From the NCBI RefSeq assembly GCF_037042905.1, contig NC_087251.1, forward strand, positions 46,998,001 through 47,062,000: a stretch of DNA of 64,000 nt. The letters run 5' to 3'. This document shows, in pieces, positions 28,501-56,800 of this stretch. Under the pieces are notes generated by a model, which was not told the DNA's origin, did not search any database, and saw only the letters and a program-made list of their open reading frames with translations. The position numbers and the translations under genes are program-made. The stretch comes from Lytechinus pictus. Lineage: Eukaryota. The number at the start of each line of letters is the position of its first letter. Position 1 is the stretch's first letter.

Positions 28501-31500
28501 CATCTCCCAAGTTCATGTGTAATAAAACCGATTCTCACTCTCTTTTCCTGTTCACCTCTCAGCAGACTAAGCACTCTATCCTGTTGATATTATTCAAACC
28601 AGATGCTTGAAAAGTGTACTTGAATCATCCTACTTTCATCATCATCTTCTTTGTCACTACGTTGAATGAATTGAATCGATCTGAACCAAGTTGAAATGGA
28701 AAAATTATTACATATAATCATATGTTGAATTGCAACTCTCCACCCGGGTGTAGTAAATGAGTTGATTGAATGCTTGAGCACCTAATCAATGAAGTCGTGC
28801 TAAACCCAGGGTGATATTTTGCAGCACTTAGAACCATAAAAGCACTATTTGTTGCATATTATCATTACATGGATCGTTGTGATGGAATTTCATTTACACG
28901 CAACATCAGGGAAAAACAATCAAATGTTTTTCATAATAACCATGAAAAACCAATGATACCAATCTTTACTGAGACAATTACTATATTCATTCCATTTCAA
29001 CTTGGATGTTGGATCTTAGACATTCTGGTATTAAGTTAACCATCACTCTACCACAAAGCAATCTCACTAACTAAATCAAATTTATTGGATCTTTAATTTA
29101 TAATTCAATTCAATTCAATTCACTTTATTCACATCCATTAAAAAGGTACAATATACAACATATAATATTACATGAACAATAACAACAATCAATACATAAA
29201 CAAATCAATATAATGAAAAATATAAAGAGTAGAACCAACATGCAGTGGATGTAGGGGAGTAGCAAAGGCCAAAGACCTATCGAGGCCAATCCTCCTTGGT
29301 TCTGCGCATTGGTTAAAGAAAACAAATTAATGGTGATTAAACAGTTATATGTACTGCAAAAAACATCAACATAAACAAACAAACAAAAACATTAAAAAAA
29401 CAAAGAAAAAAAAACACAAGGCTCCATTTTATTTAAAAACTGATGGAGAATTGGCAAGATATGATTTATATTTACGTTTAAAAGTCAATAAAGATATCTT
29501 TTAAGAAAGGTGAAGTGATGATGTCAAAACTTTGTGCTACATCTTAATCCAGATTCTATAATGTATCAAGAGGTAAATTGTCACTTGGTCTCAACCACTT
29601 TTCCTACATTCTATCTGGTCTCATCCTACATGATCTAACCCTATTTCATCTATAAAACTGTTTGTATAATTGCCATTTATACCTTGGTCACATTTGCTCT
29701 ACGGCGGCCGTACGGTGAGTCGAAAACAGCCGTTTTAATAATTTTCATTCAAACCACCTATATTGTACAAAAATGTTAAAACGTCTGTTTTCGACTCGCC
29801 GTACGGCCACCGTAGAACAAATGTGACCAAGGTATTAGCAGTTACCACTATGTCTCATTTCCTTTGAAGCTATTCCCATTTTGTTTAACACCGCTAATTC
29901 TACATGATTAGATGAACTTGAACCAAACTGAAAAATCTATTTGACCAATAATAGCAGTAACAGTGAAAAATGAATGCTACATTTATATATATTGCTTTGT
30001 ACAAATGCTTTCAAGTGCCGTAAAAAGTAGACCAAGTGGGTTTATAGCTATGATGGTGTTAGATAATCTGAGAATCAGACCGTCTTCTAGTAGATCATTT
30101 GGATACAAACCAAACAAGTCACTCCACGTCCTTGTCTCCATGTGTCCAGTATCCACTCATAATTAGAGAAATATGAATGGATTTGAAGCAAACATCTTGG
30201 AGTACATCATGAAACACTCCATCCTCTCGGAAGGGAGAGCAAATTAAGGAAATGCCACTGACATTCGGGGAGAGCCACTCTGGCAACATTTGAATTAGTC
30301 TACTTACCTCTGGTTGGTGGGCCCGGGGATCCAGGCCCCGCCCCCATCTCTCCGCCCGCCGCCGGGGCTAAGCCCAATTCTTTCCACTTGACAAGATGCT
30401 TTAGATTAAGCCAAGTCTCCATCGGGCTGGAGGCAGGATGAGCTAATGGGAAACTTCCCGGCCCGTACACGCTGAGGTATTTTTGTGATTAAGGGAAATG
30501 AAGGAGGGTAATTGGATGGAGGAAAAAAAAAACAATGTGAAGTATAGAGGAATTCTGTGGAGAATTCAAGCAAAGTGAAATAATATTTGGGCATGACTCT
30601 CTATCAAGGCAACAACTCAATAATTCAGAGTAATAAATGTTTGGCTCCCTATCATTTAAATAGATTTTGTTTTCAACTTTCACTAGCCACTGAAATTTGA
30701 TAAGCTAGTGGGCAAGTTCACCATATTTGTAACTGTATACATAGTCTGTGAGTTATAAACCTAATTGAATTGTTGTATTGAATCATTTAACTAAATGAAT
30801 AAATCAAACAGATGAATTAAAAAAATGAATCAAAGTAAAATGAATTTCTGATTGTTAAACTAGAAAAAATCAATATGACATAAACAATGGGGAAAAAATG
30901 TACTAAGACCTCTTAAAAATGTTTGACCATGATCCTACTACTATATAGGTATACAAACAAAACTACTGTGAAGGCGCAAACTTTTGAGTATATACATAGC
31001 ATGGTAATAGAATAAAAAGAAAAAAATATGCAAAATTCATATTTTTTAAAGCAAATATATTTATCTTTACTTTCTGTTTAAATAAAAGAAACTTGATAGG
31101 CCAAAAATTCAATCACTTGAAAATTTTTATGATTTTTTTTCTCTAAAAAATCTCTGATCTTATTTCATCTATATCTTATAACATTCTCTCTCATTGCCAA
31201 ACTGAAATGTGTGCATTACAACTTGTCAAAGTTGAATCTGCTGCTGGATCTAGCTTTGACGTAGAAAAATATCATACTTACATAATAACAAACAAGTAAT
31301 AATCAGAGAGAGAGAGAGCAAATTGAATGTTTTCAGCATTAACAATTTTTTTTTCTTTATATTATGCCTCCACGGTGCAAAGTTGATTGCATATTTGAAC
31401 TAATAATTCAAGTGTAAAGAGAAATAAAAATATTCAAACTCATTTATTCACATATTTTATAGGTAAATAAAATCAACAAGTAAAATGAACTGAACATTTT

Positions 31501-32844
31501 TAATTTCAAGTATAATTTCAAAGTCTAAATATATCACACTCACGTCAACCAGTTATTTTCTAATATATTCTATCTTGCACCTTCATGAAAGAGAAAACAT
31601 AACTAATCATGATTCAATTTTCTTCTTTATAACAAGTACAAAAGTAGAAAAATATTTAGACTTGTCATAGCAGTAAAGATCAACTGGGTGACATTTATTT
31701 AAAAAAAAAAAGGATCATAAAATATATCAATAAGCCCATAATTGTGAGCAGTGAAAACTTCAATTTAAACTGCATCATTTCCCCGCATTTTCATTACTTC
31801 TTGTCCATCTATGCTACATCCGCCAGGATGTAGTTCATTCGTGCGGGCCTCGGGGAGAGAAGATCAAAGGTCCAGAGAAATGGGGGAAAGAAAACGAAAG
31901 AGAGAGAGAGAGAGAAAAGGAAAGAGAGTTTGGGTGAGAGAGAGATTATTATCAAATGCAGCCCTATAAATGTGAATAAGTGACTAAAAGCAACTTACAT
32001 GGGGATGTTCTGTGGAGAAAATTAAGATTTCAAGGGGAGAATAATACAGTTGTTTTTCAGACTCACACTGATAAAAAAAAACATAATATGATTGCCTTGA
32101 ATAAATAATTAAATAAAGTTTCTAAACGTTCATGGATTGAAAACCCTACAGTACTAACTACACAGAATATTGTCATAAGGGAAAACAGTGTTTTAAACTT
32201 GTTTTACCACACAACAGTTTTGCTCAAAAGTTAGTGAACCCCACCACAAAATGCACGCCTTCTTTTAGGCAAGCCAAGAGAGACAAACTTTGTTAAAATG
32301 TAATCACCTGACTTCACAAGTAAATATCTAAAACAAGGCAGAACCTGAACATTTAGAAATAAATATGTACATTCTCTGGTGGGGTTCACTAATTTTTAAG
32401 CATCACTGTATTACTGTACCAATGTTTTTAATCTTTTTTTTTAAACAAGTGAAATTAATCAAAATAATTTGCAACGTTCAGACCTCTGTCATCACCTAAG
32501 AAGGAAATAATAACACTGAAAGAAAAAGAAAAAAAAAAGAAAAAATGAGACAAAGAATCAGAGATTTTTTTTGAAAAAAAAAAACCCTTTGAGTCATTTC
32601 CATGACATTCAAACTTCATCCCCTACTTCACAGGGCCCAATGTTGCATGGCTTCAGACCAACACAGTTTTTAGAATAAAATTTACCCCCCCCAAAAAAAA
32701 AAGAAAGAATTGAACTAGATAAAAGAATTCATAAGAGGAGCGTGAAATGTCAGGTAAGTTCTGTTTAAATGAGTTTCTTAAAACCGTCAACTGCGACAGG
32801 CAGTAAGGGAATCATCTGGAAGCATCTATAGGCAAAGCAGACAG

Positions 32845-32876
<32 letters not shown>

Positions 32877-35800
32877 AGTAGGCAGGCAGGAAGCGCAGAG
32901 ACTGACAGTGGAGTAGCCTCGGATCTGTGCATCACAAAACAGGAGATATTTGTCATTTCCTAACGTTTCTGTCGGCATGGAATCATCATTTCTATATCCT
33001 CTTGCCAATTGGGCAAGGATATCCCCTCCCAGAATGCAGGAAGTCCTTCAAGATCTGCAAAGGCTCTCTTCTCTACTGCACCTGAGCCATGTTCTACCGC
33101 TCTACCTTGCTTCATGAAGATTTATACCCCTTTCATAAACCTATCCTCCAATTAGCCGCCTAATAGTAATGCGGATAATTCAATAAAAATTGCGTTCACA
33201 AACTCCGAAAATTATCCGCATTATTTTTACGAGCGCCCGTCCTGAAAAAGGCAGATAATCGTCATGACAACTGGACACGCCCCCTCCGATGCGGTTGTGT
33301 TGGAAAAGGGTGACCTTGTGACCGCACCATGGCAATTATCCGCATTATTTGGAAATACGTTCATAAACTCAAAATCTTTTCCCTATGCTGCTATTATGCG
33401 GATAATTGCAGCATCAAAATAATGCGGATAACTCTGGTCCTCCTCCGATTTTACGACCAAATTATGCTGCTATTAGCCGCATAATTGGGTTTATGAAAGG
33501 GGTATTAGTTTTTAGTCCTGTCTGGGTTTTTCATGTATGCGGAATTTCTTGCAGCTAAACTATTGTTGTGCTACCTTTATTTTATATCACAGTATTTGTA
33601 AATAAATCAGTATATATCCAAAAGGTTTTTAATATTATAAAGATATCTACAGCTATTAAATAGGTTTTCAATGAAGGTTTTTCTTGTCTTTAAAGGTCAA
33701 GTCAACTCCAGAACAAAGTTGATTTGAATCAATAGAAAAAAATTAAAGAAGTATAATGCTGAAAATTTCATCGTTTTAAAGTTTCGCTTATTTGTCACAA
33801 AACAGTTATATGCACAACTTAGTGATATGCAAATAAGAGAATTGATGATGTCCCCCACTCACTATTTCTTTTGTTTTTTTATTGTTTGAATTATACAACA
33901 TTTCAATTTTTACAGATTTGACAAGGGCCCTCTTGTTTGAACCACAAAATATCAAAGCAGTGGTAATTCTACATGTTCAGGAAGGAATGAAATACGAGGA
34001 ATGGAATACAAAAGAAATAGTGAGTGGATGATGTCATCAGTCCCCTCATTTGCATACTGACCAGGAGGTGAATATCACAATTGTTTTGAGAAATTAAGCA
34101 AAAATTTGAAATGTCATTACTTTTTTATTTTGCATCAGATTTTGATGACATTTTCAGTGTTATGCTTGTTTGATTTTTCTCTTTTTATTCAAACGAACTT
34201 TTTGTTGCTACACAAATCACTATACAGTAACTCAAGTTGTCATTAGATTACTTAATGTAAAATATTCAAATCTCTTCCTGAAAAGTTTAGGAAGTAGAAT
34301 ATATGTTCATTTGCTGGGCATTTTGATTATACAATCAAACTTTTGCCTCTGGAAGTATATTGAGTTTTAAGTGACAATCTTTCTTGCACAAAAATTCATT
34401 TACAGAAAAAATGTATTTCATTGCAATAAATATGGAAAACGAAAATAGATATTGATAATCAGGAATATATCTATAATCACAACCACTTGAATTTTTCTTC
34501 AATTAATAACTATTCAAAGCTACACTCACAGTTGAAATTAAGTTAAATAACTATATACTACGATGTAAAGCTGATTAAGGGGAAGTGTTCAGTAAAAGCT
34601 ATGGAAAATTGAATATATCATGTTTTAATACTAAAATCATCACTCTAAATAAACATGAAACTGAATATAATGAAATTTATGCTAACATTCACATCCTTCC
34701 AGCCACTGCAGGGATTTTTTCCTCTTTTTTTTGTTGATGTCAAGGCAGGATTTTTTTCTTTTCGCTTTTGGCTCTGAACCGCTATCAGGATGTACATACT
34801 TCATATAGGATATCCATACTACCCCCTGACTGGCAAAATAAATATCCGATTCTCACTAAGACGCCGCTGCCTGTTTGTTTGCATGTGGCATAGCCAGAGA
34901 TGACATGGCGGTGGATGTGTGTTCATGCCAGGTTTTTATTTACACTTTTCAATATTGACTGATGTTGAAATGATCATTGTAAGTTCTTGTAGAAAATAGA
35001 GTTACTTTTTTTTGTTTTAAATAAATATCAACCAATAAAAAGATCATTGCCAGTTCTTTAATAGAGGAAGAAATAAAAAAAGGTTCTCTTTTATAGTTTA
35101 TTTTTCTGTTTTCTAAAAATACATCCGGCAAATACAGTTTTTCATCTGAAGTATGTATCTGTTCTTCCGTATAGTTAAAGATGCAACCAAATTCAACAGG
35201 TTAATTTTTCAAGAACTTGATTAATGTAGAATTATAATAATTTCATAATTGAGAAAACACATACATCTATGAATTTACTTATTTTTGTCATGACTTTAAC
35301 ATCCAATACGACCCATTCCATTTAAGGTGTAAGGTGAAGATTGAACCTCAAAGTTGCTGATTGGGTAGAAAAGGTAAAACAAGTATGGTCACATTCTTAA
35401 TAGGGGTGGCATGATGTCTAGTTTTATTCAAATTTCAAGCAGAATTTTTTTCTAGGATATTTTTCTCGACCAGAAGTTTCATGGAGATTTTGAACTTCCT
35501 ACCTTCTCAACATGACTTTGACATTGAATAAAGTACCAGTTGAGTGAATCAGAAATTTCATGTTTGCTTGAAAATAGAAAGTGGTATCGACGCACTCCTA
35601 GGAATAGCCGTCAGGACTTCTAGATTTATTGACATTGACATTGGCCATTTCCCCCTCATTAATGAACTTAATTACTTCCAATGGGAAGTTTTGAGAACTA
35701 AGAGTGCACACATTATACTGTCCTTCACCTTTTAACCATTTACAAACACATCACGGTTGTAACAAAAAGGATTCGCTATGCTGTGTTGATTTGTATCACA

Positions 35801-38800
35801 AAATGGCTTCTGATTGGTTAAAACCTAATATAATAAATTATCTCCTATCAGAAAATAATACCCTATCACTAAATTCTAATACAGTAAATAAATCAAAATA
35901 AATATTCTTAATGAGGGGGGGGGGGGGGATAGGGTATATGACACTCCAGTTAGAATCCGTCTGCACGTGCACTATAAAAAACCTCTAAAGGTGGCGAAGA
36001 ACATCCTAACAAAAGAGCAAAATTGTTTTGATCCTAAAATATCAAAAAGGTACAGTAGAATCAATGATTCCTTTTTCATAAAGCAAATACAGTTTAATAC
36101 TTCTACCACACTTCCTTTCAACTGTACAGGGGCCAATTAAAAAAAAACTTGTCATAATAACAGATTTGCAATAACAGTTTAAAGCTACTGAAATTCTTCA
36201 ATCTGATTGGTTGATAGTACATTAGTTATAAAAATTGTGTATTTGTTATTATAACAAGTCTTCATGACATGGGCCCCAGGTCTGTTCCTGATGGGGGCCA
36301 TTTCATAAAGCTGTCTGTAAGTTAAGAGTGACGACTGGTGAACCTTTCTTACGCGCTAAGTAATCACCAATGAACATATTATTTACCACAAGAAAGGATC
36401 ACCGGTCGTTCTTAAAGTCGCTCTGAACTTACGAACAGCTTTATGAAACGGCCCCCTGGTTGCACCTGTCATCCTCTCAACATCCTAAACCCTACCTTGC
36501 TTTCATTTCGTTAGAGAAACAAGTCTCCTTCCTCGTATAGACGATGCACTAAGGGGCACATTCAGAGGGGTTGGTGGATTCCCCCTTCCCATTCATTCAA
36601 TTGTACCCTATTTGATTTCACCTTCCCTGTACAGCAGTGGCAGGTAAAAATTACACTGGGGTAGAAATGCTACAAAGTATCCTGGAAAATAAACAAGTGG
36701 AACGCCTCTGGCAGTCTCACCTGCATCACCCGATTCAATATAGCAGCAGTGCTGACTTTGAAAACTACTATAAAATAATTGTTCACAAAAAACACCATTC
36801 ATATAATGATACAATACTACGTTCATTGACATTTGACCTTGATCATGTGACCTAAAACTTGTCAGTGTTACTTGATTTCCCCTATATCCACATTTTATAC
36901 ACTTTGAAAGTTATGACAGCAATCTAATAATTACCTCTAAAATGGCCAAAGTTCAATGACCTTAAATAACCTTTGACTTTAGTCATGTGACCTGAACCTC
37001 GCACAAGATGTTCAAAGATACTTGATTACTCTTATGTCCAAGTTTCATGAATCAGATCCATAAACTTTCAAAGTTATGATGTTAATTCAACAGATACCCC
37101 CATTATAGCCAAAGTTTATTGACCTTTGACCTTGGTCATGTGACATGAAATTCACACAGGATGTTCAATGATACTTGATAACTCTTATGTCCTACTTTTA
37201 TGAACTAGGTCCATATATTTTCTAAGTTATGACATTTCAAAAACTTAACCTTAGGTTAAGGTTTTGATGTTGATTCCCCCAACATGGTCTAAGTTCATTG
37301 ACCCTAAATGACCTTTGAACTTGGTCATGTGACCTGAAACTCAGGCAGGATGTTCATTAATACTTGATTAACTTTATGGCTAAGTTTCATGAACTAGGTC
37401 CATATACTTTTTAAGTCATGCTGTCATTTCAAAAACGTAACATTTGGTTAAGATTTGGTGTTGACGCCGCCGCCGTCGGAAAAGCGGCATATGTAGTCTC
37501 ACTCTGCTATGCAGGTGAGACAAAAAAGAGCTCGCTAGCCCCAGAATTTCCCCATTCACAGCATTGTTAAATTATCCACAGTTTAGCAGATTTAGGGAGT
37601 AGATGGTGAAAAGTAGCTCCCCAAATTAAAAAAATGATAATTTAACATAACTTTTCGTTAAATACGAGCCTGTATGATTACAACAAGCAGGCCATTTAAA
37701 TTTTTCGTGATTTTATTCAAAAATCTAATGACCTTGATTGCACCACACAATTAAACCTAACCCCCCTCCCCCGCCCTGTAACACGGTTTAAGTTAACATA
37801 CCATTTTTTTCATATATGCCTGTATGACTATGATGATGTGAAGGTTATAATTTGAATTTTTCAAATGCCACAGTCTACAGTGTCCTTCACTGCAAAGTAT
37901 ATGCAGAAAAATCTTGCTGTTTGAGGTCAGAATGTCATTTATTTTCTAATTTTATTCAAAATCTATTGACCATGGATGCGCCAAGTAATGATGATCCATG
38001 ACAATTGCTCCTACTGAAAATGCAGACCTGAAGCTAAACAAACCTGAGCTTCAGACCTTACCTTAACATTAATCCTATACCTCGCACGATTCCAAACTAA
38101 AACAAGTGGAATGCCTCTGGCCGTCTCACCTGCATCACGCGATTCAATATAGCAGCAGTGCTGATTTTGAAAACTACTATAACTCGCACAAGATGTTCAG
38201 TGATACTTGGTTACTCTTATTTCCACGTTTTATGAACTAGACCAATACACTTATAGAGATATGATGGCAATTCAACAAATACCCCCAACGTGGCCAAAGT
38301 TCTTTGACCTTACATGACCTTTGACCTTGATCATGTGACCTGAAACTCGCACAGGATGTTCAGTGATACTTGATTACTATTATGTCCAAGTTTCATGAAT
38401 CAGATCCATAAACTTTCAAAGTTATGATGGTAATTCAACAGATACCCCCAATTCGGCCAAAGTTCATTGACCCTAAATGACCTTTGACCTTGGTCATGTG
38501 ACGTGAAACTCATGCAGGATGTTCAGTGATACTTGATTAACCTTATGTATAAGTTTCATGAACTAGGTCCATATATTTTCTAAGTTATGATGACATTTCA
38601 AAAACTTAACCTTAGGTTAAGATTTTGATGTTGATTCCCCCAACATGGTCTAAGTTCATTGACCCTAAATGACCTTTGACCTTGGTCATGTGACATGAAA
38701 CTCAGGCAGGATGTTCAGTAATACTTGATTAACCTTATGGCCAAGTTTCATGAACTAGGTCCATATACTTTCTAAGTTATGCTGTCATTTCAAAAACTTA

Positions 38801-41800
38801 ACCTCAGGTTAAGATTTGGTGTTGACGCCGCCGCCGCCGTCGGAAAAGCGGCGCCTATAGTCTCACTCTGCTATGCAGGTGAGACAAAAACCCCAACTAT
38901 CACAATCCTAACCCTCAACTTATTTCATCTGAGTTGTTAGCGGAGGAGGAATCACCGCAAGAGCAAATGTCACGTGACCGTAATTACACCTACCCACCCT
39001 CCTTTGCATGCTCGCCCCCAGATCCTGATCATGGTACTTCTGAACAAAATAGCAGGAAGAAGTCTAGCATGAGAAGCACTGCGGATGTGGAAAGATTAGA
39101 AGGAGAAGGATTGACAGGAAATCAAAATCTAATCATCCCTTGAGGGAAATTAAAATTTGCTTCTTCTATCCTTAAAGTAAAAGAAAAATAACTGAAAGAA
39201 GCCATTCAATGGTACTGCAACGGTAACGAGAAATGAGTACAAACTTGGTCTTAGATGATGCTGACAATAAGATTATCTCTACTGGGCAGATGCGTAAAAA
39301 TGCTCTATTTTCTGGCTAGTAATTAATCAAAACCAGAATTTAAAAAATGATATTGTAATTAATGAATGATTTACCAAATTTCGAATAAAGACAGGAACAA
39401 AAACAAAATAAAACAAAGATGCGCGAACCTCCAAATAGACCAACCTACAACTGGTACATCAGGGTTAAATGGTTGTTTAACTGTGCAATCTTTGCGATAT
39501 CACATTTTATCTAAATTTAGAGGAATAACCTTAAGCTGAAAAGAAAGTGTTATATTTTGCCTCAAACAGTAGATATTAAAAAAAAAATAGCTGGAAAGTG
39601 GTGTGAAACAAGACTACCTGGAAAGGAAAAATCAACAATGCCAAAGAATTTGCAGGCATTTTAATTCATTAAAATCTGAAATAAATACACATAAGTATTC
39701 TTGGCATGTTTTGCGTACAAATCAATCAACTTCCACAAAATATAACATAATAGTAACTTAAATTCAAATTTGACCCCTCCCCCAAACAGGACCAAATCCT
39801 AAGGTCAATCACACATTTTACCATATAAACCATGGTTAAAAGGGAAAACATTTTATTACTCCTTCAGTGGTTACAGGCTTCCACCAATTCCTATATTGTA
39901 TAAAATAGGTTTTTCCCAAAATACCACAATGATTCATATCCTCATGTTTGTATGATGTAAATAATGAAGTCATGCCTGAAATAAAATCAGGTTTGGTGAG
40001 GAGCTATGCTGCCAATCTTACATTAATATAAATACTCTCAGATAAAAAAAAGGATCTGATCATGAATATATGTATCTGTAAGTTGTTGCTTTGTCACACT
40101 TTATGATAAACTGTCATAATTTTCCAATTTGTCAATAGAACGTACATTTTTCAGAGTACAGTACATACTTGGTAGATTCCATGATGGGTGATGTGCAGGC
40201 ATATACATGTATTTGTCGCGGCCACCTGATCGAGATCTGGGGGGTTCATACTAAAGTACTCTTTTCCCCCCAATAATGAGATACTGAGTGTCCCAAAGTA
40301 GTTTACACTTTTGTAAAGACCCCCCCCCCGCCATCAATTATATCACTACTGAAAGGAGGGGGAGGGGAAGGGGTATACAATGTACATATTTATGGAAGAA
40401 CTTGGTATCTTATCTTATGCTATATAAGCAATGTTTATTATCATCATTATCATTTATTTTAATAAACATATTTATTAACAATTTTTTTATTTATATCTGG
40501 AACATGTAGGTCGTGGTTGTCCATTTTAGGTATCTGTTGGATGCACAGATCTAGTTTTTACTAGGAGAGGAAAATGACCCGTCTAATCCAATGTGGGGGG
40601 GAGGGGAAAGGAGGGTGAGGGGTATATTACTGTACATATTAATGGAAGCACTAGGTCCCTTTTCACTTTTTTATACAATTATTTAGAGCTCTAGTTGTCC
40701 TTTTTTATGCACTTATATTTGTTGCATGCACAGATCCATTGTTAATTACGAGAAGAAAATAAACTGACCTACCTCATCCACCATCATAGAAACATTTTTA
40801 TCTGTATTCCTCACGTAAGGTTTAAAACAAAGAAGTCATGAATTCACTCACATCCGGACCTAAACCTTTTTAATAAAAAGAACAGCTTTGGGACAAAATC
40901 ACAGAAGTTTCAATCAGTCATTAGACCGGATCTCTAAATACAGAAAGCTCAGAGGAAATTTTCAATCACTATAATTTCATATTTCGAGATCGATCCGGAG
41001 TGCCAGATCTCACCTGTGGTTTATTATTAGCTCTGTAAACACTTGATACTCTAAAATCTTAAAAGTCAATCCATTTGCCAAGACAAGACACATTTCTCTG
41101 AGAGGCCCTTCATTACGACAACTAGTCAATGGAACAAAGAGATCAACACTATTAAATCATATAGTTAAAAAACTGAATGCCAAGAAATAAGGACAGAAAT
41201 TCAAGGGATATCCCAAAATAGGTATATTTCCAAATTTTCTATTCATTCTCTTCTTAACATTTTAAGTATTTTATAGTCATTTCCTCTACCTCAAGTAGCA
41301 ATATGTGTAGGCTTGCCCTTTTCAGTCAGGCATACTTAACCGATTTATTTCACATGAAGAATATTTCTGTATTCGGTAATCTTTTTAATGGATGCATGAA
41401 AATCATTTAAGTGCCAGGAACAGGAAGAATGAAATTTTATGGTTTGGAAAATTGCCAGTTTTTGTTTTGTTTAATTTTTTTTTTTTTGGAAAAAGATAAT
41501 GGTTCCGTGAAACTGTGTGAATGCAGTAACTTTGACATTACGGTAGTAAAATAGGAAAGCCTGGGTACAGTAGAATGGATGTAAATTATTCAAGTTAGCT
41601 AGTGCATACAATTCCTACTTACCAAATCATACCCGAATATCATTTGTAAAGTTAAATAATAACTTAAAAAACACTTTTACAAAACTTATCATATTAGAGA
41701 AAGAAGACTGAAAATAATCTTCTACATAGATTGCCATGAAATCTCCATTAAAACATATTAAAAAGGAAAAAAAATTGACAAAAATGTGATGAACTCTCAA

Positions 41801-44800
41801 AAAATGTGCAAATCATGTTTACATTTTCACATAAGGACTCTGTGCCAGTTTCACCAACACTTTTAATAAATGAACTTCCTTCTCACAACTGATTTTATTT
41901 ACACGTATACTTAAAAATAAACTCAATTACTTCCATCCACTACATTGGTCAACATTTTGATGTAATGACATACAAGGCGGTTCAAGAGTTAGAACGACAG
42001 CAGCTAAAAGGCACCTAATAAATCGGGTGACACAACATCTGAATTTTGCCTAATGTGCTTCCTAATTTCCCCACAGACCACTGCCCTTGACCCTTAATTT
42101 TCATGTTGAAACAGGAGGGGAAATATGACAATATAGGCCTATAAGGGCTGGGGTGTGTTTCAAGAAAAATTCTATCACTGTTTTTCACGGACTAATTTGT
42201 TCTCAGCCAATCACATACAAGTATCTGCAGTAGCTTATAACATTTGTAACTGATTTTCACTGAATAACTTTCCCTAAAAGTTAACCTTGTTAACACTTAT
42301 AGGAGCCATAATAACATTATCAAGGGTAAGTTCAAGAGGGGTATATTCCATAATAGGAATTTCAAACTCCAGGAAAGAGAAAAGAAAACTTATTGGCGAA
42401 GAGCAGTGTATGCATGAAATGGTTCATATGCCAGCATTCTTGTCAAGACCCAAATATCGAGCACGGAGGAAAAAGGTATGCTGGGTACTCATCAAAAGAA
42501 AACTTATCATCTCATTGAATCATGATTACCAATCCCCACATCCATTCTAGCACATAAATAGTTGGGTTTTTTTTACAAATCTTATTTACACAGACAAGGA
42601 ATTAAGCCCCCGAACAATACAATTCTTATGACATTTCCATACACCTAAACATAGCGACACTGGCTTAATCTTAGCCAGATCCTGTGAGTATCAAAACAAA
42701 CAGACTTGAGTCAAAATCTATCAGATAATTTCAAATGTCACACCCTCCATCCGATACTGCAAAACCAAAATGTATTTTAATATACTGCTCAATCACCAAA
42801 GGATTTTAAGATTCACAGGTTATGAACTTCTCGTTGTGCCTCCAGCAATTACTGTTACAGAAATCTTGATTAAAATCTTCCCCCTTCCTCTCTCTCTCCT
42901 TCCATCACCCCCTCCCCCACTTCCATCTCGACCTACGCCCTTGCCGTGATCCCAGAGCAGAGCCAATAGGGAGCGGGTCAGTCTCCGCGGGATACTGCAT
43001 TCACCGATGGATAGGTAACTCAACACCTGGCACGCCGCGTAACCCTAAACGAAAAGGATCCAAGCTTGGTAACTCGACGCGCACTTCCCACTGGAGGAAA
43101 GCCAAAATGAGCCTAATTAGCGGTTCCCGTAACCTTGGTTTCCATCGCAAGACATCAGACCGGAGAACCGAAACCCTATCTTCTACAAAGCCGCGAGATC
43201 ACATCCTAGATAGCACCGCTAGACATCCTCACAGAATTGCAATGAAATTTGTTTCTAAAAGGGACAAAAGGGGGACATGCATGGGGATAACAATAAAAAT
43301 AAACCAAAGGAAATGAAACAAATGCTTATCTCTTGCAGCTATAAAACATAATTCTATTTTGTCTCATGAATATCAAGGTGTATCAACGTCCTTCCCGAGT
43401 GTACAGTATCTCTCTAGTGGATGGGGAGACAGTCTGAAGAAAAGGAGGTGTGACCCGCAGAACACTGACCTCTAAGGCAAGGGCCCACATTCTTAACTCT
43501 GGTTTAACCATGGTGTACAATTGCCATTTAGCTATGGGAAGCCAAATGTGGCAACAATCTCAAGAATAAGGTGATCAATTTATTATAACTTTTGTCATTC
43601 AAATTATTTGAAAAAAAATTCTCAAAATTATGATCCAAGTAAATACAAGAAGCATTACAGTAACAAACTCTCTACACACATAGATAGCTTCCCATAATTT
43701 TAGGCCAGACTTAGACCATGGCCTAAGTTAAACCTGGCTTCAGAATACAGGGCTATGTCTTTAAAACTGTAATTGATTCAAATAAATTAAAACTATGGAG
43801 AGCCAGCAATGTCATAAAGAAGGATGGTATAAATACCATTCCTTTGTCAAGAAATAAGGAGCACACTGATTGGGCGATTAATGGCACAAGCACAGACGAG
43901 AGTCTCTAATGGAACATCAAAGATAAAAAAAAAAACATTGGCAGGGGTTAAGCACATTAATTCTATATTTCTTACCATACATTCTATCCAATAAAGATTT
44001 TCTTTGAATTCTGAATATCTTACTGGCTGATTAAATGAAAAAAAAAATGATTGGAACATTTGTTCTATGGCCAGATTTTTTACATCAAGATTTCATGCCT
44101 GCATCACAGAAAATTGAAAAAAAAAAAACACTGATAGAAAGAGAATATATTCTAGGTCTTCATTAAAATCAATTTTTATAATTTCTAATCAGTAAGGATT
44201 TTGTTTGATTGGTGGAAACCTTATAAATAGTAATAAAAGAAGGACTGATGGACACTTTCAGTAATATAGCAAAGTATTTTCACATCTAGGTTTAATGTCA
44301 GCATAACAAACAGAATCAGAACATTGATGAATATGACAATGTATCTAGAGTTTTTAATTAAAACTATTCTGAACACCATATTATAGATTCTAGCCCATAG
44401 GGATTTTGTTCAAATCTTGAAATCCTTACTAGTCAGTTTTAAAATATAATTGATTGAAACTTTCGTTGTAATGCAATATTCTTCACATCAGGGTTTCAAA
44501 CCTGCATCACATAAAATAGAAACAGAACTCTGGTCAAAATGACGAATGTATTTTAGGTCTATATTATTAAAACACTTTTCAAAAAGTCCTTGGCACACTG
44601 ATGACATCACTGATTTTCATAAACTTTATAAAGAAGCTTGGATGTATTTCCTAAATTACTATTTCAAATGCCAAAGTATCAATAAGAGGCTTCCTAAAAA
44701 GATAATCTAAATGTGTATTTCCCTTTTTCTACATATGGAGTATGGTCAATAAAATATGTCATGGCCTGGTACCGTTTTACGTCATAGTCATCAATCAAAG

Positions 44801-47800
44801 TGTGATGAATTATCCTCACATCCTTGACAACTACTACAAGGTCCTGTTTCATAAACCGTATTATCAAGCAATGAAAGAGATACAACTTGATTTCGTTAAC
44901 GAAAGCTATATCACATCCTTGACAACTACAGGACTCACAAACCCTGTTATCAATGCTAACGTTACTGATTCAAGCTACTGTAAAGATGTGATTTGATTGG
45001 TCAACAACACATTTGTCAAATCCTTGACTACTGCAGAACCCTGTTTCATAAAATTTGTTATCAATTCTAACTTTACTGTTGTAAGGTACTGAAAAGATGT
45101 GATTTGATTGGTCATAGACTAAAAAACATTTGTTAATATTGTTAAGCTTTTTGAAAGAGGCCTAAATCTCATCTTCCGCTGACCTTCAACAATGTTTTAT
45201 TTCTGTAGGAAGTTCTCCCTGATTCTGATTTAGTTGTCTGTGATATTCAAGATTCAAAATTATGTTCTACACACTTTCAAATGTCCATCTTTTCCACATG
45301 AAATGATGTAAGAAAAGGGAAAAGGGGTGATAAGGAGAGAAAAAGAGAGAGAGAGATAACTCGTAAGGATTATAACTAAACTAATTGTTCTACCCATTCT
45401 AATCTGGATATAGCTTTTCAGGCTTAGTGATTCTATAAAAGCATTTTCCTGCACTATTCTGCAGTAAATGATTGGCTGCCACTTAAACAAATATAATAAT
45501 AACATTCCATGGTGTCTTTCTTGCTCCAGTAAGATATCAGTAAATAATGTCAACTCTTATTTCTTTCTTTCTTTCTTTCATTCATTCATTCATTCATTCA
45601 TTCATTCATTCATTCATTCATTCATTCATTCATTCATTCATTCATTCATTCATTCATTCATTCATTCATTCATTCATTCATTCATTCATTCATTCATTCA
45701 TTCATTCATTCATTCATTCATTCATTCATTCATTCATTCATTCATTCATTCATTCATTCATTCATTCATTCATTCATTCATTCATTCATCATTCATTCAT
45801 AACGTATTATTTAAACAGGGTAACCCCATCAGTAGTCCAATACTTTTGTATTTGGGGGCCCTGTATAACATAGAACAAAACAAAATACAAGCATATATAC
45901 AATACAAATGGAAAATGCAAATCTTCTTCCAGTTAATATTATCATCTGAAATACCAATACCACCACTAAGCTATAAAAAAAATGGGAAATTATATCAAAA
46001 TGACATTAAGGAAAAACACTAAATTTCCCATTCTGTCACAAACCACATTTGCATTTGCATTTAAAGCATAGGCAATTCGCCTTCCTTTCAATCAGCTGAA
46101 ATGGCATATTTGATGGGAAAGAAGATATGAGCTAAATCCAGTTGCAGGTTTTAAATATGGAATGTACTTGTACATACACACACAGGAATGGGAAGAGAAA
46201 CATGCTTGATTAAATAGGAGGGGTGAAGCCCCGCTAGTCCCCCATGACAGGTATATCACGGAGGAAATCATATTAAGATAAGGAAAATATGAAGGGCAAT
46301 CGCCGTTAATATTGACTACTAAACATCGTGCAACAACGTTTAAGACCGGCAAATAGGTTTGTACTCTCGGATGAATAAATTTGCAACGTTTCAGTTTATG
46401 GATGTTTTAGGAACATTAGAGGTTCTTCCGCACAGTTGGATAGCAGTGAATGAGATCATATCAAGATAATGCATGCAATGGTGTGCTAACACAGCAAATA
46501 TTGATCTTAAAACAAGAATATACATCAATGTATGACAAAATATTGTACGCAATACTGCTCAGGATAAATTCACGTCTTTAGATCACTTAATTTTGCCCCT
46601 CCCTCATATAAAAACTACTTGCAAAACAATTTCAAAAGTACCTTAAAATATGGTGATAATCCTTAAACTTGCAAGCCATTTAAATGATTTGTTTATTAAA
46701 TTTATTTTCTATTCATTTTAATTTATCAAATTTGTTTTTATCATTCTATTATCTATTCTTCTTCATTCATTTTTTATTTCCCGAGGGGATTCCAAAGAAG
46801 AATGAAAAGCACTTACAACGATCTGTGAATAAATTATCTTTTGTTTTATATACTCGAATCCCCCACCCCCACGTTAGGAATAACCATAAAATATAGCAAA
46901 ACCAAAGTGGTCCACATGACTACAACTTTTGCAACAGATTGTCGCATCATCACATTCGGTGTATAAGTCAATGGGATATGAAGCAGCATTTTTTTCAAAT
47001 AGGGTTCAAGACAAGACATTATTTTGCCACTTGGCAGCAATCAGATGTAAGCCAATTAAATCCCATAAAAGTGTGATGTCATGGGTTCTCTAATGCAACT
47101 TTAGAGAGAGAGAAAACAAAATTGTATAAGAGTTGATAGTTATCGGCGATTGAAAATCTGCTACAAATGACTTGCACCTGGAAATGAACCCAAATTCAGA
47201 AAGGAAGATTTATGCATTGATTACAAAATGCATAATTGAATAATTCCTCTTTATGCAGGTGCCTAATGAAATATGGCATTGAAGCGCAGCTTCCTATAAT
47301 AACTAGCTAAAAGACCTTAACATATTTTAGGGTGTCTTGAACAGTTGCCAGTTATCCATTGACATCTCTAAAGTATCTAAAGCATTGTGAAATCGTAAAA
47401 ATAGTTCTTGGCAAAAAAAAGTGTAAAAAAGCATTAAATGTGTACTGAAGAACTTTGAAAGCAATCACGACGAGTGTAATATAAGAAACCAGTTTATAAA
47501 ATGATATACTGCTTGCTTCTGTAATAGTGGTATAATCATATGACTTATTCAACTATCTTTGTATATATGACTTATTTATACTGTCACATGATTTTATGTT
47601 ATAATCATGACTTATTTACTGTCTTTGTATTCTTGTTAAACAATATGATATCTATATTTTGTCTCATGTAAAGTTCATACAGAACTGCATCACTTATGCA
47701 CTTAATAAGTATTTTCTGTTACCATCATTATCAAATACTTGAAATTTTCTTGAAACATTCGTGAGAATTAAGCCTCAGCTTGCACTTCTCTGCCATACTC

Positions 47801-50800
47801 TCAACACACTGAATTTGTTTAAAAAAAGGAAATAAACGTGACTCTCTTCTCAATCGAAACATGCTACTTCGTGAAAAGGATATCCATAGCTGCGAAGGGG
47901 TGGCAGCCCGGGCCTGCAGGGGCGACGGCGGTGGAATGAGGGTTGCTACGGCCACGCACCTGGCAGAGAAGCATGACTCACTGGAGCCGAGGGAGGGCGA
48001 GAGGAAGACAAAACTCCCCTCTGATACCGGCCTGAGGTGATGACAGGGGGCACCCTGGACCCCGTCTGGGCTGCAAGGGGGAAATCGAAAGGGGGGGGGA
48101 AAAGGGAGAGGACAATTATTTCTATTGCATCTGATTTCTTACATGTACCTGTGCTGCATTGTTGCTTTACAATGTTTTAGCCAGTGTATACTGATGGATG
48201 TATGGCAAGCCATTTTCTTATTTAATCTAATTTTTTTTAATCAACCATTCCATACTTGATATCAAGAATTGACTATGATGACATAATATACCAAGAAATC
48301 ATATTATTAATTACATCACAAGATCATTTTGCGTTGTTAACAAATATAAATACTTGATATCGCACATTTCATTCTTGATATCAGGAATTGACTTTGATAA
48401 CACAAAATGTCAAGAAATCAAATTCTTTATATCAAGAAACCATTTTGTATTAAATAACAGAAATAAATTCTTGATATTGCACATTTCATAACAAGAATTG
48501 CATTTTGGTTGCACCACAAAAAGAGCAACAATAAGAAATCAAATTATTTGTATCAAGAAACAATTTTGGGTGTTTAAAAGATGCCAATATAGAAAAGGAT
48601 TAAATAAGATTATAGCTTGCCATACATATGTCCACATACGCTGGCAAAATCACCCAGGTGTAACAGACTCCCTATCTGCAAGGCTTTTTTTCACCATCGC
48701 ATAGAATCAATAACATCTAAGATTATATCTAAGCTGCACTAGGCAATAACCGTCAATAAAATGATTGATCATTAAAACTGAAGATACTGACATTTTCAAA
48801 AGTGGGAATAATACTGAACCTTAATTCAATTTTCTTTCCATCATCAGTAAATATTCAGCATAACCTTGCATACACCATTGTCTTACATTTTGCATTGCTG
48901 AATCAGTATACCAGATTAATAAATTTGATCATTTACTTTCAAAATTTGGAGGAAATAAGATTTTTACTCTGACTTTCGTTTTATCAAAATTGAAAATTGA
49001 TCTAGATCCAGTGACCAGTTTAGTTAAAAATACGTTTATATATATATACCCTATTTATAATGGTGAAATAAGTTTATTTGTATTGGAACTTTTTTAAACC
49101 TTGACTGTTTGCATAGAGTGTACATTTGATTACATCAACAGTTATGTCTTTAGATCCACTCTGATAACTGGGGGCCCGCTGAGAGAACAGTTTTCGGAAC
49201 TGAAGTGGCTACCCTGGGTAAATATGCAGATATTATTATTATTATTAACTGGTAAATTGCCACTTTGGCCTACAACCACTTTATCTACTTTCCAATCGGT
49301 CTCATCCCACTTGGCCTAATCCTAGCTCATCTACGAGCTTTTTGGTTCATCCAATACTAGTAGCCCATTTACCATTTTGTATAATATCCAGTTAGGCTGG
49401 CAAGTCTATTTTATGTGAAGTGAATATAAACCAAATTTTCATTTGACAAAACGTAAAATAATAAAGCAGACGGAAGTGGAAAATGGAAATTAAACCAGAT
49501 CTGGATATTAAACTATAAAAAGGTTAAACCAAGTGAGTGATCACTATTTTCAGTCCTGCAATTAATTGGAAATTCATAGTAGTGGTCACACCACCAGAAC
49601 TTTGCTGGAGCGGTGAAAAAAATTTATCACTGCTCGTTACCATTCACCGTTTAACAGAAGTTGGCCACCGTTAAGGCAACGCTGTATACGCTCCGCCACC
49701 GCTGATGGTCCCTCCTACCGCTCTGAAAGTTTTGAGCTGCACAAAATATTGTGAGTGGTGAGGAGCGGGCAATTTTTCGGCTCCGGCAAAGTTCACCACC
49801 GCTCCAACAATGCCAAGTCAAAGTTTGGCACCACTAAATGCAAGTTCGTGGACACTTGGGTCCGCTAGGCCAACGCAAAATCTTGAACGCTGCGGTGATC
49901 AAATGTTGCACAAACTTTGGTGGAGCGGTTGTAAGCGTTTTACGAGCAGGCACGGGATTGCTGGAACGGTGTCGGGGACGTAGAAGCAGCGATCCATTGC
50001 GGTGATGAACTTTGGTTTGGCGTTGGTATGGAGGTGTCACTGCTAAACCAATGCTCGCTACCGTTAAACCAACGCTAAAGAAACAAAGGCTTTAGCGGTG
50101 CACCGCTAAAGCATTGCCGTGTTTTCGATTTTTCTTCCCATTTTGCGCGCGGTTGACGAGCGTCATCAAAATTCGACCCCCTCTCCCTACCATTCAAGGA
50201 ACGCTTAAACAAAGTTCGGGCGGTGTGACCATGGCTTTAGATTAACTGCCGATCTCCTTCTTGCAAGAAGGAGTGTGATCTGATTTGCCACAGATAAAAT
50301 TGATCTATAAATTGTATAAATGAAACAGAATATTTGCAACTGATTGCAAATATCTTCTTGCAACAACCCCAAAGTGATGCTCAGATCAAATGACAATTAG
50401 ACCAAACTGATAACAGACCAATGGAGTTTGGTCATCATGATGTAAGACATTCAGAGAATTGGACTGTATGCTAATAGATACAAGGGGGCACTTATATGCA
50501 ATCAATTCATCATAATCATATATATGAAAGCCATTTTTTAAAGGTCGAATACACCCCAGAAAAATGTTGATTTGAATCCAAAGAGAAAAATCAAACAAGC
50601 ATAACACTGAAAATGTCATCAAAATCGAATGTAAAATGAGGAAGTTATCACATTTAACATTTTCACCTTTTTTTCACAAAACAGTTTCATGCACAAATCA
50701 GTGATATGCAAATGAGAGTAAATGATGTCCCTCATTCACTATTTCTTTTTTGCTTTTGATTGTTTGAATTATTATTTTACAATAAGGACAAACTTGATTG

Positions 50801-53800: not shown

Positions 53801-56800
53801 TATGAAATACAAACCGAAATATTCATAAAATGAATAAGAAAATTTCCTCCTGAAAGTTTAAATACCGTGGATGGATTTCACATAATTCTACAAGTTTATT
53901 TTATTTATTTGTAAAGAACTTATACATAAATTTTTTTTAAATACAATTAATACATATCACCCTTTCCATCCGTATATATTAGAATTAATTATGTGAAAAC
54001 ACACATTCATAATAATGAAGATGAAATATAATTTCATGTACCTTACTTTTGTTGATCTTCTTTTTTTTATACTATAAATGAAACAATAACATCCATATTT
54101 TGAAAAAAGAGAATGAATTCAAACATTGAATACATGGTGGGTTAAAATGGTTTAATTACCATTTAACTATTTTATCAAGTATTACAAAATCTCACATTTT
54201 GATGATTTTGAATGAGAACTATTAAAAAGAGGAGAAAAGAATCATTAAAATATCACATGCAGGAATGTAAAATATTATTGTTTTCCAATAACTTTCAAAG
54301 TTCTTCCAGTAGTAGAAATCATCTCAAAAGATTATACAGGTAATCCTCAGCACAGCTGGCATTTAGGATATTATTTAACATCAAATAGTGTATATAAGTA
54401 TAGTATATTTGTAGTTCTTGTAAGAGTCTACCATTAGGTCAGAAGTTGCCACAAGATGGCAGCATTTCACACAAACATCAGACTCTGTACAATAACCTTC
54501 CATAAGTCAAAATAATCGCCTATTAGTTTAGTTCACATGCACGTTGATCTTTTTTTAATATCAATTCATAAATACCACCAATAGAGGGCAGTATACAAAA
54601 TATTCTTACCCATCTCATCGGTCCAATGCCACAAACAAGCCAACTTCCAGGAAAGATGAAATATTGAAAAACCAACAAAAGATAACTGTTTTGAAAATGT
54701 AAAGTGTAAAACAACATTGTTAGATTATACCTTCTAACCAAATTGAAAAAGTCAACATTGAACAACAAAACACAAACTATTTTATGAGCAAAAAACAATT
54801 GCTTTCATACTTAACAAAACAAAAACCAAATATAACACTGTAACAAACACTGGTTAAAAACAGACCTTGTTCTTTCAAAGTAGATATTAATGTTGTCAGG
54901 ACCCTTTTTTTTTATCTTTTCTAGAAAATTACTAAGATCATCTATCTGATATATATAGAACTATTCATCAAATTGGTTGATTGAAAAATTCATATAATGT
55001 ATCTGAAAGAGAAATATCAAACAGAAATCCATTACCTGTTGAAACAGGATTTAAAGTAAATCCAAATTTTTTTTTTTTTTCAAGTTGAACATAAACATCT
55101 AATTTATAATATACAAATCAAAACACTGTAATAATACTCACATTAAGAAATATCTTGGGTCAGTGATAATGTCTATTCCATGGCAAATTGAAGCAAATTC
55201 AATTTTCCTTTCCCTGCAAATAAAATATAAAATCAGTAAGCCAATACATTATACAAAAACAAAAATAAATATATAAGAGAAATTGTAATAAAACAAAAAT
55301 CACATATATGTTTTTCCCACAATTAATCATATGCATAAATGGTTGATATAACAAGATACATGACTGAAGTTCCTTATCAAAATTCTACACTTGTCCTAAA
55401 TGAATTGTTTTTTTCTTTTGCTTGTTTCATACTATTCTATTCGAGAAATTGCACACCATAGTTAAAAGTTATAATAATCGCGCAGAATTTCCTTTTAAAC
55501 ATAAAGAAAATTCTAGGCAATTATTAATAATTTGTATTCCATGGTGCCCAATTTTCTGTTCATCAGTCTGTCCTATATCATTTTGGGGGTATTTTTGGGG
55601 TGAATATCAAAAAGTAAATAAAATTCAATCATACTCAAAGTTCTTGAAATCCAGCTTGTCACATTTTGAAGAAAGTCCAACTGCAATCTGTCAAGAAAGA
55701 AAGATAGAAAGACAAATTAAAATACAAATAAATGCTAAAGAAAATCATCTAGTAGGCGAATTACTGGGAAAGGTTTGCTACTTTGCCAGAATACATATCA
55801 TATCAAAGCTCTTTAATCCCTTTTTTTCATACATTACTAATTAATGAACAGTTTTAGAGGAGCAAAGTCACTCTAATGGCTAATGTTCTTTAAAAAAAAA
55901 AAATTAAAAAAAAAGATACAACCTATCATAAGACTTACACTGGGTGGTTTCAGACCGCCTCGAAGTTTGTCAGTTCCAGGTATTCTCTGATCGGGAAATT
56001 TACCCCGATCAGAAAATACCAGGTATTTTGGTAATGTGAAAGCAAACTACGCGTAATTTCCCCAAAAGAAAATACCCGCTAAATTGTAGGTACTTGGCGA
56101 AATTACGAGAACTTTCGCGGGGATTTTTCCAAGGTCGCAGGTATTTTGGCAATGTGAAAGCAATTTACGGGAACTTTTAGCCCAGCGTGTCGTTGGGCGC
56201 GGGCGCCGTGGGTGGCTGCTGGGCTAGTGGTTTTGAATCTCGCGCCTTGCCTGCTTATTAGACCATACTGCGCATGCTCCTAACTTCAGGAATTTATCCC
56301 AAAGGGTATGTTTCGGGGCGGTGTGAATGCAGGAATAATTAATGGGTATTTTTTAGCCTAAAAATGTTCTCATAATTTAACGGGGATTCTTGTGATCGAG
56401 GCGGTTTGAAACCGCCTATATTTCATGAAAAGGCAGAAGACTGAAATTTTCTGAAGATATCTAAATGCCATGTCCTCTACCACTCACCTATCTGATATAA
56501 ACAAAGTGATCCATGATATGTAGCCTGATTCGCCATGAACCTATCCACGGAGGATTATCTATAGTTACTGGGGGTGCTGTGACAATGCTCAGCACCCCCA
56601 GTAACAATAGAATAATCCTCCGTGGATAGGTCCATGTGATTCGGGGTTTGGTAGATTCTAAAAATTGGTCTATATGTATCTCTTTTTTTTTTCCGGTGAG
56701 CCAGTATCAAGACAAAGACAAGATGATGGGATATTCCCTTTCCCCTCAAGTTGGCTATCATACTATATATTTGGAGGCTACACAAAACCATAGATAGCTA

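Follow-up and report, generated by a model that had tools for sequence, protein, structure and literature searches.

Evidence for a U12-type AT-AC intron in the sea urchin orthologue of the meiotic gene TOP6BL/TOPOVIBL

Does a gene of the meiotic break machinery in the sea urchin Lytechinus pictus depend on the minor spliceosome? The question is raised by a window of 64,000 nucleotides (nt), i.e. the whole stretch of DNA that was analysed (NC_087251.1, positions 46,998,001 to 47,062,000; all positions below are those of the window). On its minus strand the first-pass annotation, made from the sequence alone, had placed a TOPOVIBL gene interrupted at 30477..47883 by an intron with the termini AT and AC. 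We hold with high confidence that 30477-47883 is a true U12-type AT-AC intron, that it separates exons 8 and 9 of the TOP6BL/TOPOVIBL orthologue and, as the simplest explanation, that it is ancestral with the minor intron of the mammalian gene.

Both splice motifs were read directly in the sequence. Exon 8 (47884..48070, minus strand, 187 nt) ends with CAG CTA TGG (Q L W) in phase 0. At 47884/47883 the minus strand reads ...CTATGG/ATATCCTTTT, where the slash marks the boundary; the letters around the donor are ...TCGCAGCTATGG/ATATCCTTTTCAC, and further into the intron ...TCGCAGCTATGG/ATATCCTTTTCACG... The first 9 nt of the intron, ATATCCTTT at 47875..47883, form a U12-type 5' splice site and agree with the pattern /ATATCCTT at an exon end that is used in RNA. 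Exon 9 (30308..30476, minus strand, 169 nt) starts with CTC AGC GTG TAC GGG CCG (L S V Y G P) and is followed by a GT donor. The intron between the two exons measures 17,407 nt. Its terminal AC at 30477..30478 was placed by orthologous proteins reading W/LSVYGP, and the letters around this acceptor (30477/30476) are ...CATTTCCCTTAATCACAAAAATAC/CTCAGCGTGTACGGG, or with more of the exon ...CATTTCCCTTAATCACAAAAATAC/CTCAGCGTGTACGGGCCG... The branch-site motif CCCTTAAT at 30488..30495 shares 7 of its 8 letters with TCCTTRAY, the consensus of U12 branch sites, and lies in the zone expected for such a box, about 10-15 nt ahead of the 3' splice site. The putative branch A, the second A of the motif, is at 30489 and 12 nt away from the last intron base, which is within the preferred range. 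No pyrimidine tract precedes the AC, because the 10 nt between branch box and AC, TCACAAAAAT, are purine-rich (4 of 10 pyrimidines). Over the final 20 nt of the intron pyrimidines make up 0.60, and shares between 0.60 and 0.95 were found for 13 AG acceptors (12 GT-AG model exons and exon 7a, see below), 11 of them with at least 0.70. Thus, the donor at the end of exon 8, the U12-like branch site about 12 nt from the terminal AC and the missing pyrimidine tract were all found as the first-pass annotation had described them.

How much do these motifs say by themselves? ATATCCTTT was counted twice in the window, against 1.58 expected occurrences. A branch box of at least 7/8 placed 9-15 nt before an AC was found for 69 of the 6,588 AC sites in the window. 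Either motif count taken alone is not above chance. Beyond chance is the finding that both signals lie exactly at the boundaries set by homology, together with the break of the RNA contigs at exactly 47884. The two exon boundaries were fixed by protein homology, independently of splice motifs. Two other acceptors near the branch site were discarded: an AC only 4 nt away from the branch A, as too close, and an AG at a distance of 17 nt (5 nt past the terminal AC), as its use would by reasoning shift the frame.

Use of the donor was examined with four public runs, which were aligned to 45810-58500. Spliced contigs were obtained from three of them (X1, X3 and X15, from two studies), and because these contigs carry spliced joints, the three runs contain spliced transcripts. 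For X1 record 4 (367 nt), positions 62-250 match 47884-48072 and the first 61 letters are found nowhere in 45810-58500. Likewise, positions 528-716 of X3 record 16 (717 nt) match 47884-48072, and its other 527 letters are found nowhere in this region. X15 record 9 (920 nt) begins at exactly 47884 and then passes five CT..AC joints, i.e. GT..AG on the gene strand. In all three records exon 8 was aligned at 47884-48070/48072 and the genome match ends at 47884. Since the extra letters fail to match 47883 and below, the donor just before ATATCC is used; the AT donor was therefore observed in RNA in three runs. A rival GT donor inside exon 8, CAG/GTGCGT at about 47961, was rejected, as all three contigs read through it. 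The junction of exons 8 and 9 that had been predicted for RNA was thus recovered on its donor side, where the contigs leave the genome exactly at 47884, while its exon 9 side was not seen in reads.

The acceptor was placed by comparison. The predicted spliced junction of exons 8 and 9 is ...CAGCTATGG/CTCAGCGTG... Through this join the proteins XP_011668978.1 of Strongylocentrotus purpuratus and XP_041467866.1 of Lytechinus variegatus read …TPSQLWLSVYGPGSF…, and the open reading frame (ORF) P0005 of a Logan transcript reads …THLWLSVYGPGSF… All three echinoid proteins have zero residues between W and L and continue without interruption as ...LW LSVYGPGSFPL... As exon 8 ends with TGG in phase 0, only a start at 30476 yields L-S-V-Y-G-P, and the exon 8/9 junction cannot slide, because the bases on its two sides differ. 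The upstream frame is ...ATPSQLW and the downstream frame LSVYGPGSFPL...; exons 2-14, joined without the 76-nt exon 7a, give 524 codons with 0 stops. The in-frame join QLW/LSVYGP of the first-pass annotation therefore stands, and we infer the AC acceptor in this species from the three echinoid proteins and the open frame.

A different course of splicing could be imagined on the acceptor side. The AT donor would be real, but one or more extra exons inside 30477-47883 or another acceptor would be used, so that the region would hold at least two introns. This idea draws on the letters of X1 record 4 and X3 record 16 after 47884, which were not read, on an acceptor side without RNA alignment, and on a small exon of 76 nt, exon 7a, that the earlier gene model had failed to include. 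On the other hand, LSVYGP follows directly on ...LW in the three echinoid proteins (one of which comes from a transcript contig), branch site and AC are well placed exactly at 30476, and the five largest intronic ORFs are without Pfam domain. We consider such extra exons unlikely and prefer a single AT-AC intron.

The gene model in which the intron lies was built with tblastn, using the L. variegatus protein (P0019, XP_041467866.1) as guide, and its boundaries were read in the sequence. Exons 2-14 lie in the window on the minus strand. Besides exons 8 and 9 these are exon 2 (60148-60031), exon 3 (59547-59497), exon 4 (58393-58170), exon 5 (57527-57444), exon 6 (55687-55635), exon 7 (55213-55142), exon 10 (14240-14106), exon 11 (11735-11611), exon 12 (6650-6540), exon 13 (6277-6182) and exon 14 (5553-5407), all of them coding and flanked by GT-AG. 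Two more exons lie past the left end of the window, with the large exon 15 among those outside. An apparent stop in exon 2 in the tblastn result is merely the acceptor ...tttag/. The remaining 11 model introns in the window are all GT-AG, as stated before. Among the located introns, to which intron 1 does not belong, the AT-AC intron is the longest with 17,407 nt, followed by introns of 16,067 nt and about 12.1 kb. Its rank as longest intron is confirmed to this extent, whereas for the idea that its length is demanding for U11/U12 nothing was found here in support.

The identity of the gene was examined with the proteins P0003 (S. purpuratus XP_011668978.1, 673 amino acids), P0019 and P0005, the last being a 770-amino acid echinoid ORF of a 2,846-nt Logan transcript contig. 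Two L. pictus models, P0004 and P0007, were also included. With the domain PF15091 (DUF4554, cut-off 27 bits), P0003 scored 31.9 and P0005 44.3 bits, both above the cut-off. The C-terminal L. pictus model reached 16.1 bits, and no match of PF15091 was obtained for single window exons in a Pfam scan made exon by exon and not of the joined ORF. A phmmer/HMMER search with P0003 gave 15 representatives, among them proteins of a crinoid (5.4e-13), opossum (3.8e-9) and pika (7.4e-4) with the source name 'type 2 DNA topoisomerase 6 subunit B-like'. With the opossum protein 265 relatives were obtained, and PF15091 is present in all 120 of those listed. Most listed relatives are named TOP6BL, 'TOP6B like initiator of meiotic double strand breaks' or C11orf80 homologue; a few carry other labels, e.g. 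'CAAX prenyl protease 2' or 'hypothetical protein'. In BLASTP the L. variegatus protein matched a human protein with E = 4e-10 across 358 residues. In the genome (811.7 Mb) all 13 of 13 matches fall on one locus of one contig, and no retrocopy was found. By these comparisons the gene, present in one copy, is identified as the sea urchin orthologue of TOP6BL/TOPOVIBL, which is the B-like partner of SPO11. Its meiotic role, i.e. SPO11 binding and double-strand breaks, would carry over from the mammalian protein by orthology. In protein searches with single exons, the exon 9 peptide matched only P0003 and P0004 and a second search only P0003; no ORF of the X1/X3 contigs was among the matches. No solved structure matched the sequence of P0003 at E up to 1. 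Four mammalian models (P0085, P0102, P0119 and P0120) show TOP6BL (PF15091) fused to CAAX prenyl protease 2 (PF02517); presumably the predictions read through into the neighbouring gene.

Is the machinery for such an intron present in this animal? Full-length genes of the minor-spliceosome small nuclear RNAs were found in the genome, namely four for U12 (109-115 bits), three for U11, two for U6atac and two for U4atac, all above the Rfam cut-offs. In minor splicing U11 and U6atac pair with the donor and U12 with the branch site. The pairing regions are present as GTAAGGAAAAT in U12, AAAAAGGGC at the 5' end of U11 and AAGGAGAGA in U6atac. The donor ATATCCTTT is complementary to the U11 5' end AAAAAGGGC and to AAGGAGAG of U6atac, and the branch motif CCCTTAAT is able to pair with GUAAGGAAAAU of the U12 of this genome. 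According to the established model of minor splicing, U11 would pair with ATATCCTTT at the donor and U12 with CCCTTAAT, with the branch A at 30489 bulged. U6atac would then take the place of U11, and the intron would be cut off behind the AC that lies 12 nt past the branch A. In this way ...CTATGG would be joined to CTCAGC..., yielding ...QLW/LSVYGP... Productive TOPOVIBL messenger RNA in this animal would hence need the minor spliceosome. This dependence, already suggested in the first-pass annotation, would follow from the intron type and matches work in mouse (Takemoto et al. 2026, PMC12956336).

For mammals the gene is already catalogued. In supplement file 1 of Olthof et al. (2019; PMC6717393), mouse Gm960 and human C11orf80 both appear as genes with a minor intron, whose 5' splice site is TCCATATCCTTT in either species, i.e. 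TCC/ATATCCTTT, and whose branch sites are TTTTCTTTAACA for mouse and TTTTCTTTAGCA for human. The lengths of these minor introns are given in supplement file 8 as 5,984 nt for mouse and 9,674 nt for human; the listed intron spans chr19:4652276-4658259 in mouse and chr11:66804191-66813864 (ENST00000360962) in human. C11orf80 is also found among the minor-intron genes with a Mendelian disorder in the supplement of a second paper. In the text of Takemoto et al. (2026; PMC12956336), Top6bl splicing events are described as validated following Rnu11 ablation in mouse testis. According to the same text, the minor-intron status of spermatogenesis genes is better kept in chordates than outside, and Spo11 has a minor intron within chordates, whereas it is a major-intron gene elsewhere. 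For echinoderms, 274 minor introns are given for S. purpuratus in Table S4 of Olthof et al. (2024), and a minor-intron density like that of vertebrates for non-tunicate deuterostomes, e.g. a starfish, in Larue and Roy (2023). Our literature searches found nothing that pairs TOPOVIBL with U12 or C11orf80 with 'minor intron', and only unrelated results for DUF4554. The gene names are absent from one supplement text file of Moyer 2020 (2,790 characters), and in the supplement of Olthof 2024 S. purpuratus is listed, while the names TOP6BL and C11orf80 do not occur.

Do the urchin and the mammalian intron lie at the same place? The human sequence ...RISSVS IFLYGPLGLPL... and the urchin sequence ...TPSQLW LSVYGPGSFPL... 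align without gap in MAFFT and BLASTP. The human motif SVS-IFLYGP given in the first-pass annotation is real and aligned column for column with urchin QLW/LSVYGP. The catalogued exon tail TCC codes for Ser and therefore fits ...SVS/ in phase 0. Furthermore, in 107 of 123 mammalian TOP6BL models S or F stands right before (I/V)FLYGP. In the remaining 16, residues are altered or inserted, and these end in Tyr exactly before this motif (SVY, SLY, PLY, HLY, SVSHLY, SVSQLY, SASNDRQLY). The disturbed models are P0018, P0033, P0034, P0057, P0058, P0063, P0065, P0067, P0074, P0083, P0084, P0087, P0096, P0115, P0116 and P0142. Within one bat species several TOP6BL models conflict at that point, as is expected when gene predictors read the tail of an intron which is not GT-AG. 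The model XP_071504978.1 of Diadema antillarum begins at the 3' end of the intron with MAKKPY/FSVYGPG, and the intron tail in the window itself translates as ...K Y/. The residues ending in Tyr are likely annotation errors at a minor intron, and these disturbances would mark a non-canonical exon boundary before (I/V)FLYGP. Urchin and mammalian minor intron apparently share position and phase, and judged from the aligned proteins they are very probably the same intron. Among vertebrates, the human and the mouse intron are both listed as minor with ATATCCTTT, and by protein alignment they lie at what appears to be the same codon as in the urchin. Given codon position and phase as in C11orf80/Gm960, an ancestral deuterostome minor intron would be the simplest explanation.

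These data also bear on the spliceosome involved. An AT-AC intron could be removed by the major (U2-type) spliceosome, as with SCN4A/SCN5A and TAF2; the termini alone cannot decide this. However, the donor is the full U12 consensus ATATCCTTT and not of the U1-like ATAAGT type, and a TCCTTRAY-like box stands 12 nt from the 3' end without pyrimidine tract. The apparently orthologous mammalian intron is moreover classed as minor (PMC6717393), and Top6bl splicing alters after U11 loss (PMC12956336). Removal by the major spliceosome thus appears hardly credible, and the U12 type is retained.

The first-pass gene model was not complete. It omitted an alternative 76-nt exon between exons 7 and 8, here called exon 7a (54610..54685, minus strand), which has GT-AG flanks and is present in every spliced contig seen in X1, X3 and X15, including pieces of X1 record 4 and X15 record 9. 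The GT-AG joints in the RNA contigs are 48070>54610, 54685>55142, 55212>55634, 55687>57444 and 57527>58170; three of the five are introns of the model and the other two flank exon 7a. Inclusion of exon 7a shifts the frame and leads to a TGA stop at 47978..47980 on the minus strand, 94 nt before the end of exon 8. Because of this shift to a stop, the L. pictus locus is split into P0007 (XP_054759611.1, 235 amino acids), which ends in exon 7a, and P0004 (483 amino acids), which starts at a Met in exon 9. Exon 7a is skipped in the L. variegatus and S. purpuratus models and in the Logan transcript.

Some signs of a retained AT-AC intron were found as well. A 2,027-nt contig of X15 (45887-47913, depth 11.7) extends without a break from inside the intron across the donor to exon 8, beside the spliced contig of this run with a depth of 17.4. 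For the neighbouring GT-AG intron in X15 the low-depth bins range from 0 to 4.4, with the high-depth repeat bins set aside. Small exact pieces of the AT-AC intron also occur in X1 and X3, and 45887-47883 is unique in the genome save for the first approximately 37 nt and one weak 90-nt match. These are hints that the intron is retained or slowly removed, from contig depths which are a poor measure, and from runs with unrecorded nature and tissue.

What then controls the output of TOPOVIBL? Unproductive splicing through exon 7a could be the main control and the AT-AC intron a conserved passenger. For this speak the exon in the spliced contigs of all three contig runs, the TGA at 47980-47978 on its inclusion, the split L. 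pictus models of 235 and 483 amino acids, and the lack of an exon 7>8 joint among the joints listed (15 of 31). Against it, the runs are without recorded tissue, the exon is absent from the Logan transcript and from the models of L. variegatus and S. purpuratus, and control by exon 7a and control by the minor intron are not exclusive. We regard exon 7a as the main control as possible, although doubtful. Any rate-limiting role of the AT-AC intron is putative. Less probable still, and put forward as a speculation, is a two-step gating of sea urchin TOPOVIBL, in which the 76-nt poison exon would have to be skipped and the 17.4-kb AT-AC intron slowly removed, side by side. Outside meiotic cells the gene would then be transcribed but unproductive, and this gating would be why the minor intron has stayed at one codon since a time before echinoderms and chordates parted.

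Several points weigh against the U12-type intron in an ancestral position as we describe it. The strict 8/8 pattern TCCTTRAY has no match at this branch site, which reaches 7/8 only. The runs with spliced contigs (X1, X3 and X15) are not on record as RNA, and the on-record RNA run X19 barely covers the gene, with a depth of at most 0.09 at exon 8 (about 6% of the run read); no on-record RNA run was listed for exon 8. The contig letters past 47884 were not read, and the crossing from 47884 to 30476 was not seen in this species. All spliced contigs seen hold the frame-shifting exon 7a, and a productive messenger RNA is not among them. With 22.3 bits on DUF4554 the L. variegatus protein P0019 falls under the cut-off of 27. 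Finally, the position of the mammalian junction is inferred from a 3-letter exon tail and the gene-model anomalies, not from genomic sequence.

Other features of the window are of less concern. No Rfam family was found in 30000-48200. Within the AT-AC intron lie a (TTCA)60 microsatellite at 45561-45800 (the array is also given as 45577-45789) and tandem repeats of 163 and 192 nt with 2-2.6 copies at 38181-38825. A Pfam scan of five intronic ORFs, the largest ones, gave no domain. At 73-2211, long open frames on the minus strand are made of a tandem unit ...FTPRFNPCGVLAYLISRPTT..., a minisatellite of the intron that separates exons 14 and 15. Four intronic stretches (48778-49625, 50474-51321, 55562-56409 and 56834-57681) reach contig depths of up to about 54,000 in all runs and show many joints to each other; they are probably transcribed high-copy transposable or satellite elements.

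It was known before that sea urchins have minor introns and that TOP6BL contains one. Since the minor intron of C11orf80/Gm960, with its identical donor, stood in the catalogue already, the finding is less novel than first supposed. New here is a non-chordate member of the catalogued case; a new mechanism is not implied. As one clear case outside chordates, it would date the TOP6BL minor intron before the echinoderm-chordate split, i.e. to a retention over more than half a billion years. It would also explain breaks in gene models, such as the start of the Diadema model at the 3' end of the intron, the L. pictus locus in two parts and the spurious residues in 16 of 123 mammalian models. Sea urchins may serve as a test system for minor splicing that limits the meiotic break machinery, and exon 7a, as a poison exon, and the possible intron retention are leads on regulation.

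The closest known system is the minor intron of C11orf80/Gm960. It belongs to the same gene family, has the identical first 9 intronic letters ATATCCTTT and is of the same AT-start subtype; the urchin intron is likewise in phase 0 and apparently at the same codon, three residues before the conserved YGP. In contrast, its length of 17,407 nt exceeds the 9,674 nt of human and the 5,984 nt of mouse, its branch site TTCCCTTAATCA is nearer to the consensus than TTTTCTTTAGCA (human) or TTTTCTTTAACA (mouse), its host is an echinoderm and thus outside chordates, and the last exon codon is TGG (Trp) instead of TCC (Ser). U12-type AT-AC introns in general were reportedly treated in works by Tarn and Steitz in 1996 and by Frilander and Steitz in 1999. 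With them the urchin intron shares the donor consensus, the branch box about 12 nt from the 3' end, the AT...AC termini, the missing pyrimidine tract and the position as lone minor intron among many GT-AG introns. Nothing differs in kind, and the urchin intron would stand at the long end of their lengths. U2-type AT-AC introns (SCN4A/SCN5A, TAF2) have the AT...AC termini in common with it, but they are without the ATATCC donor and the TCCTTRAY box, whereas an ATATCC donor and a TCCTTRAY-like box are present in the urchin intron. A last parallel is the minor intron of chordate Spo11, as reported by Takemoto et al. (PMC12956336): its host is the catalytic partner of TOPOVIBL and likewise a minor-intron gene.

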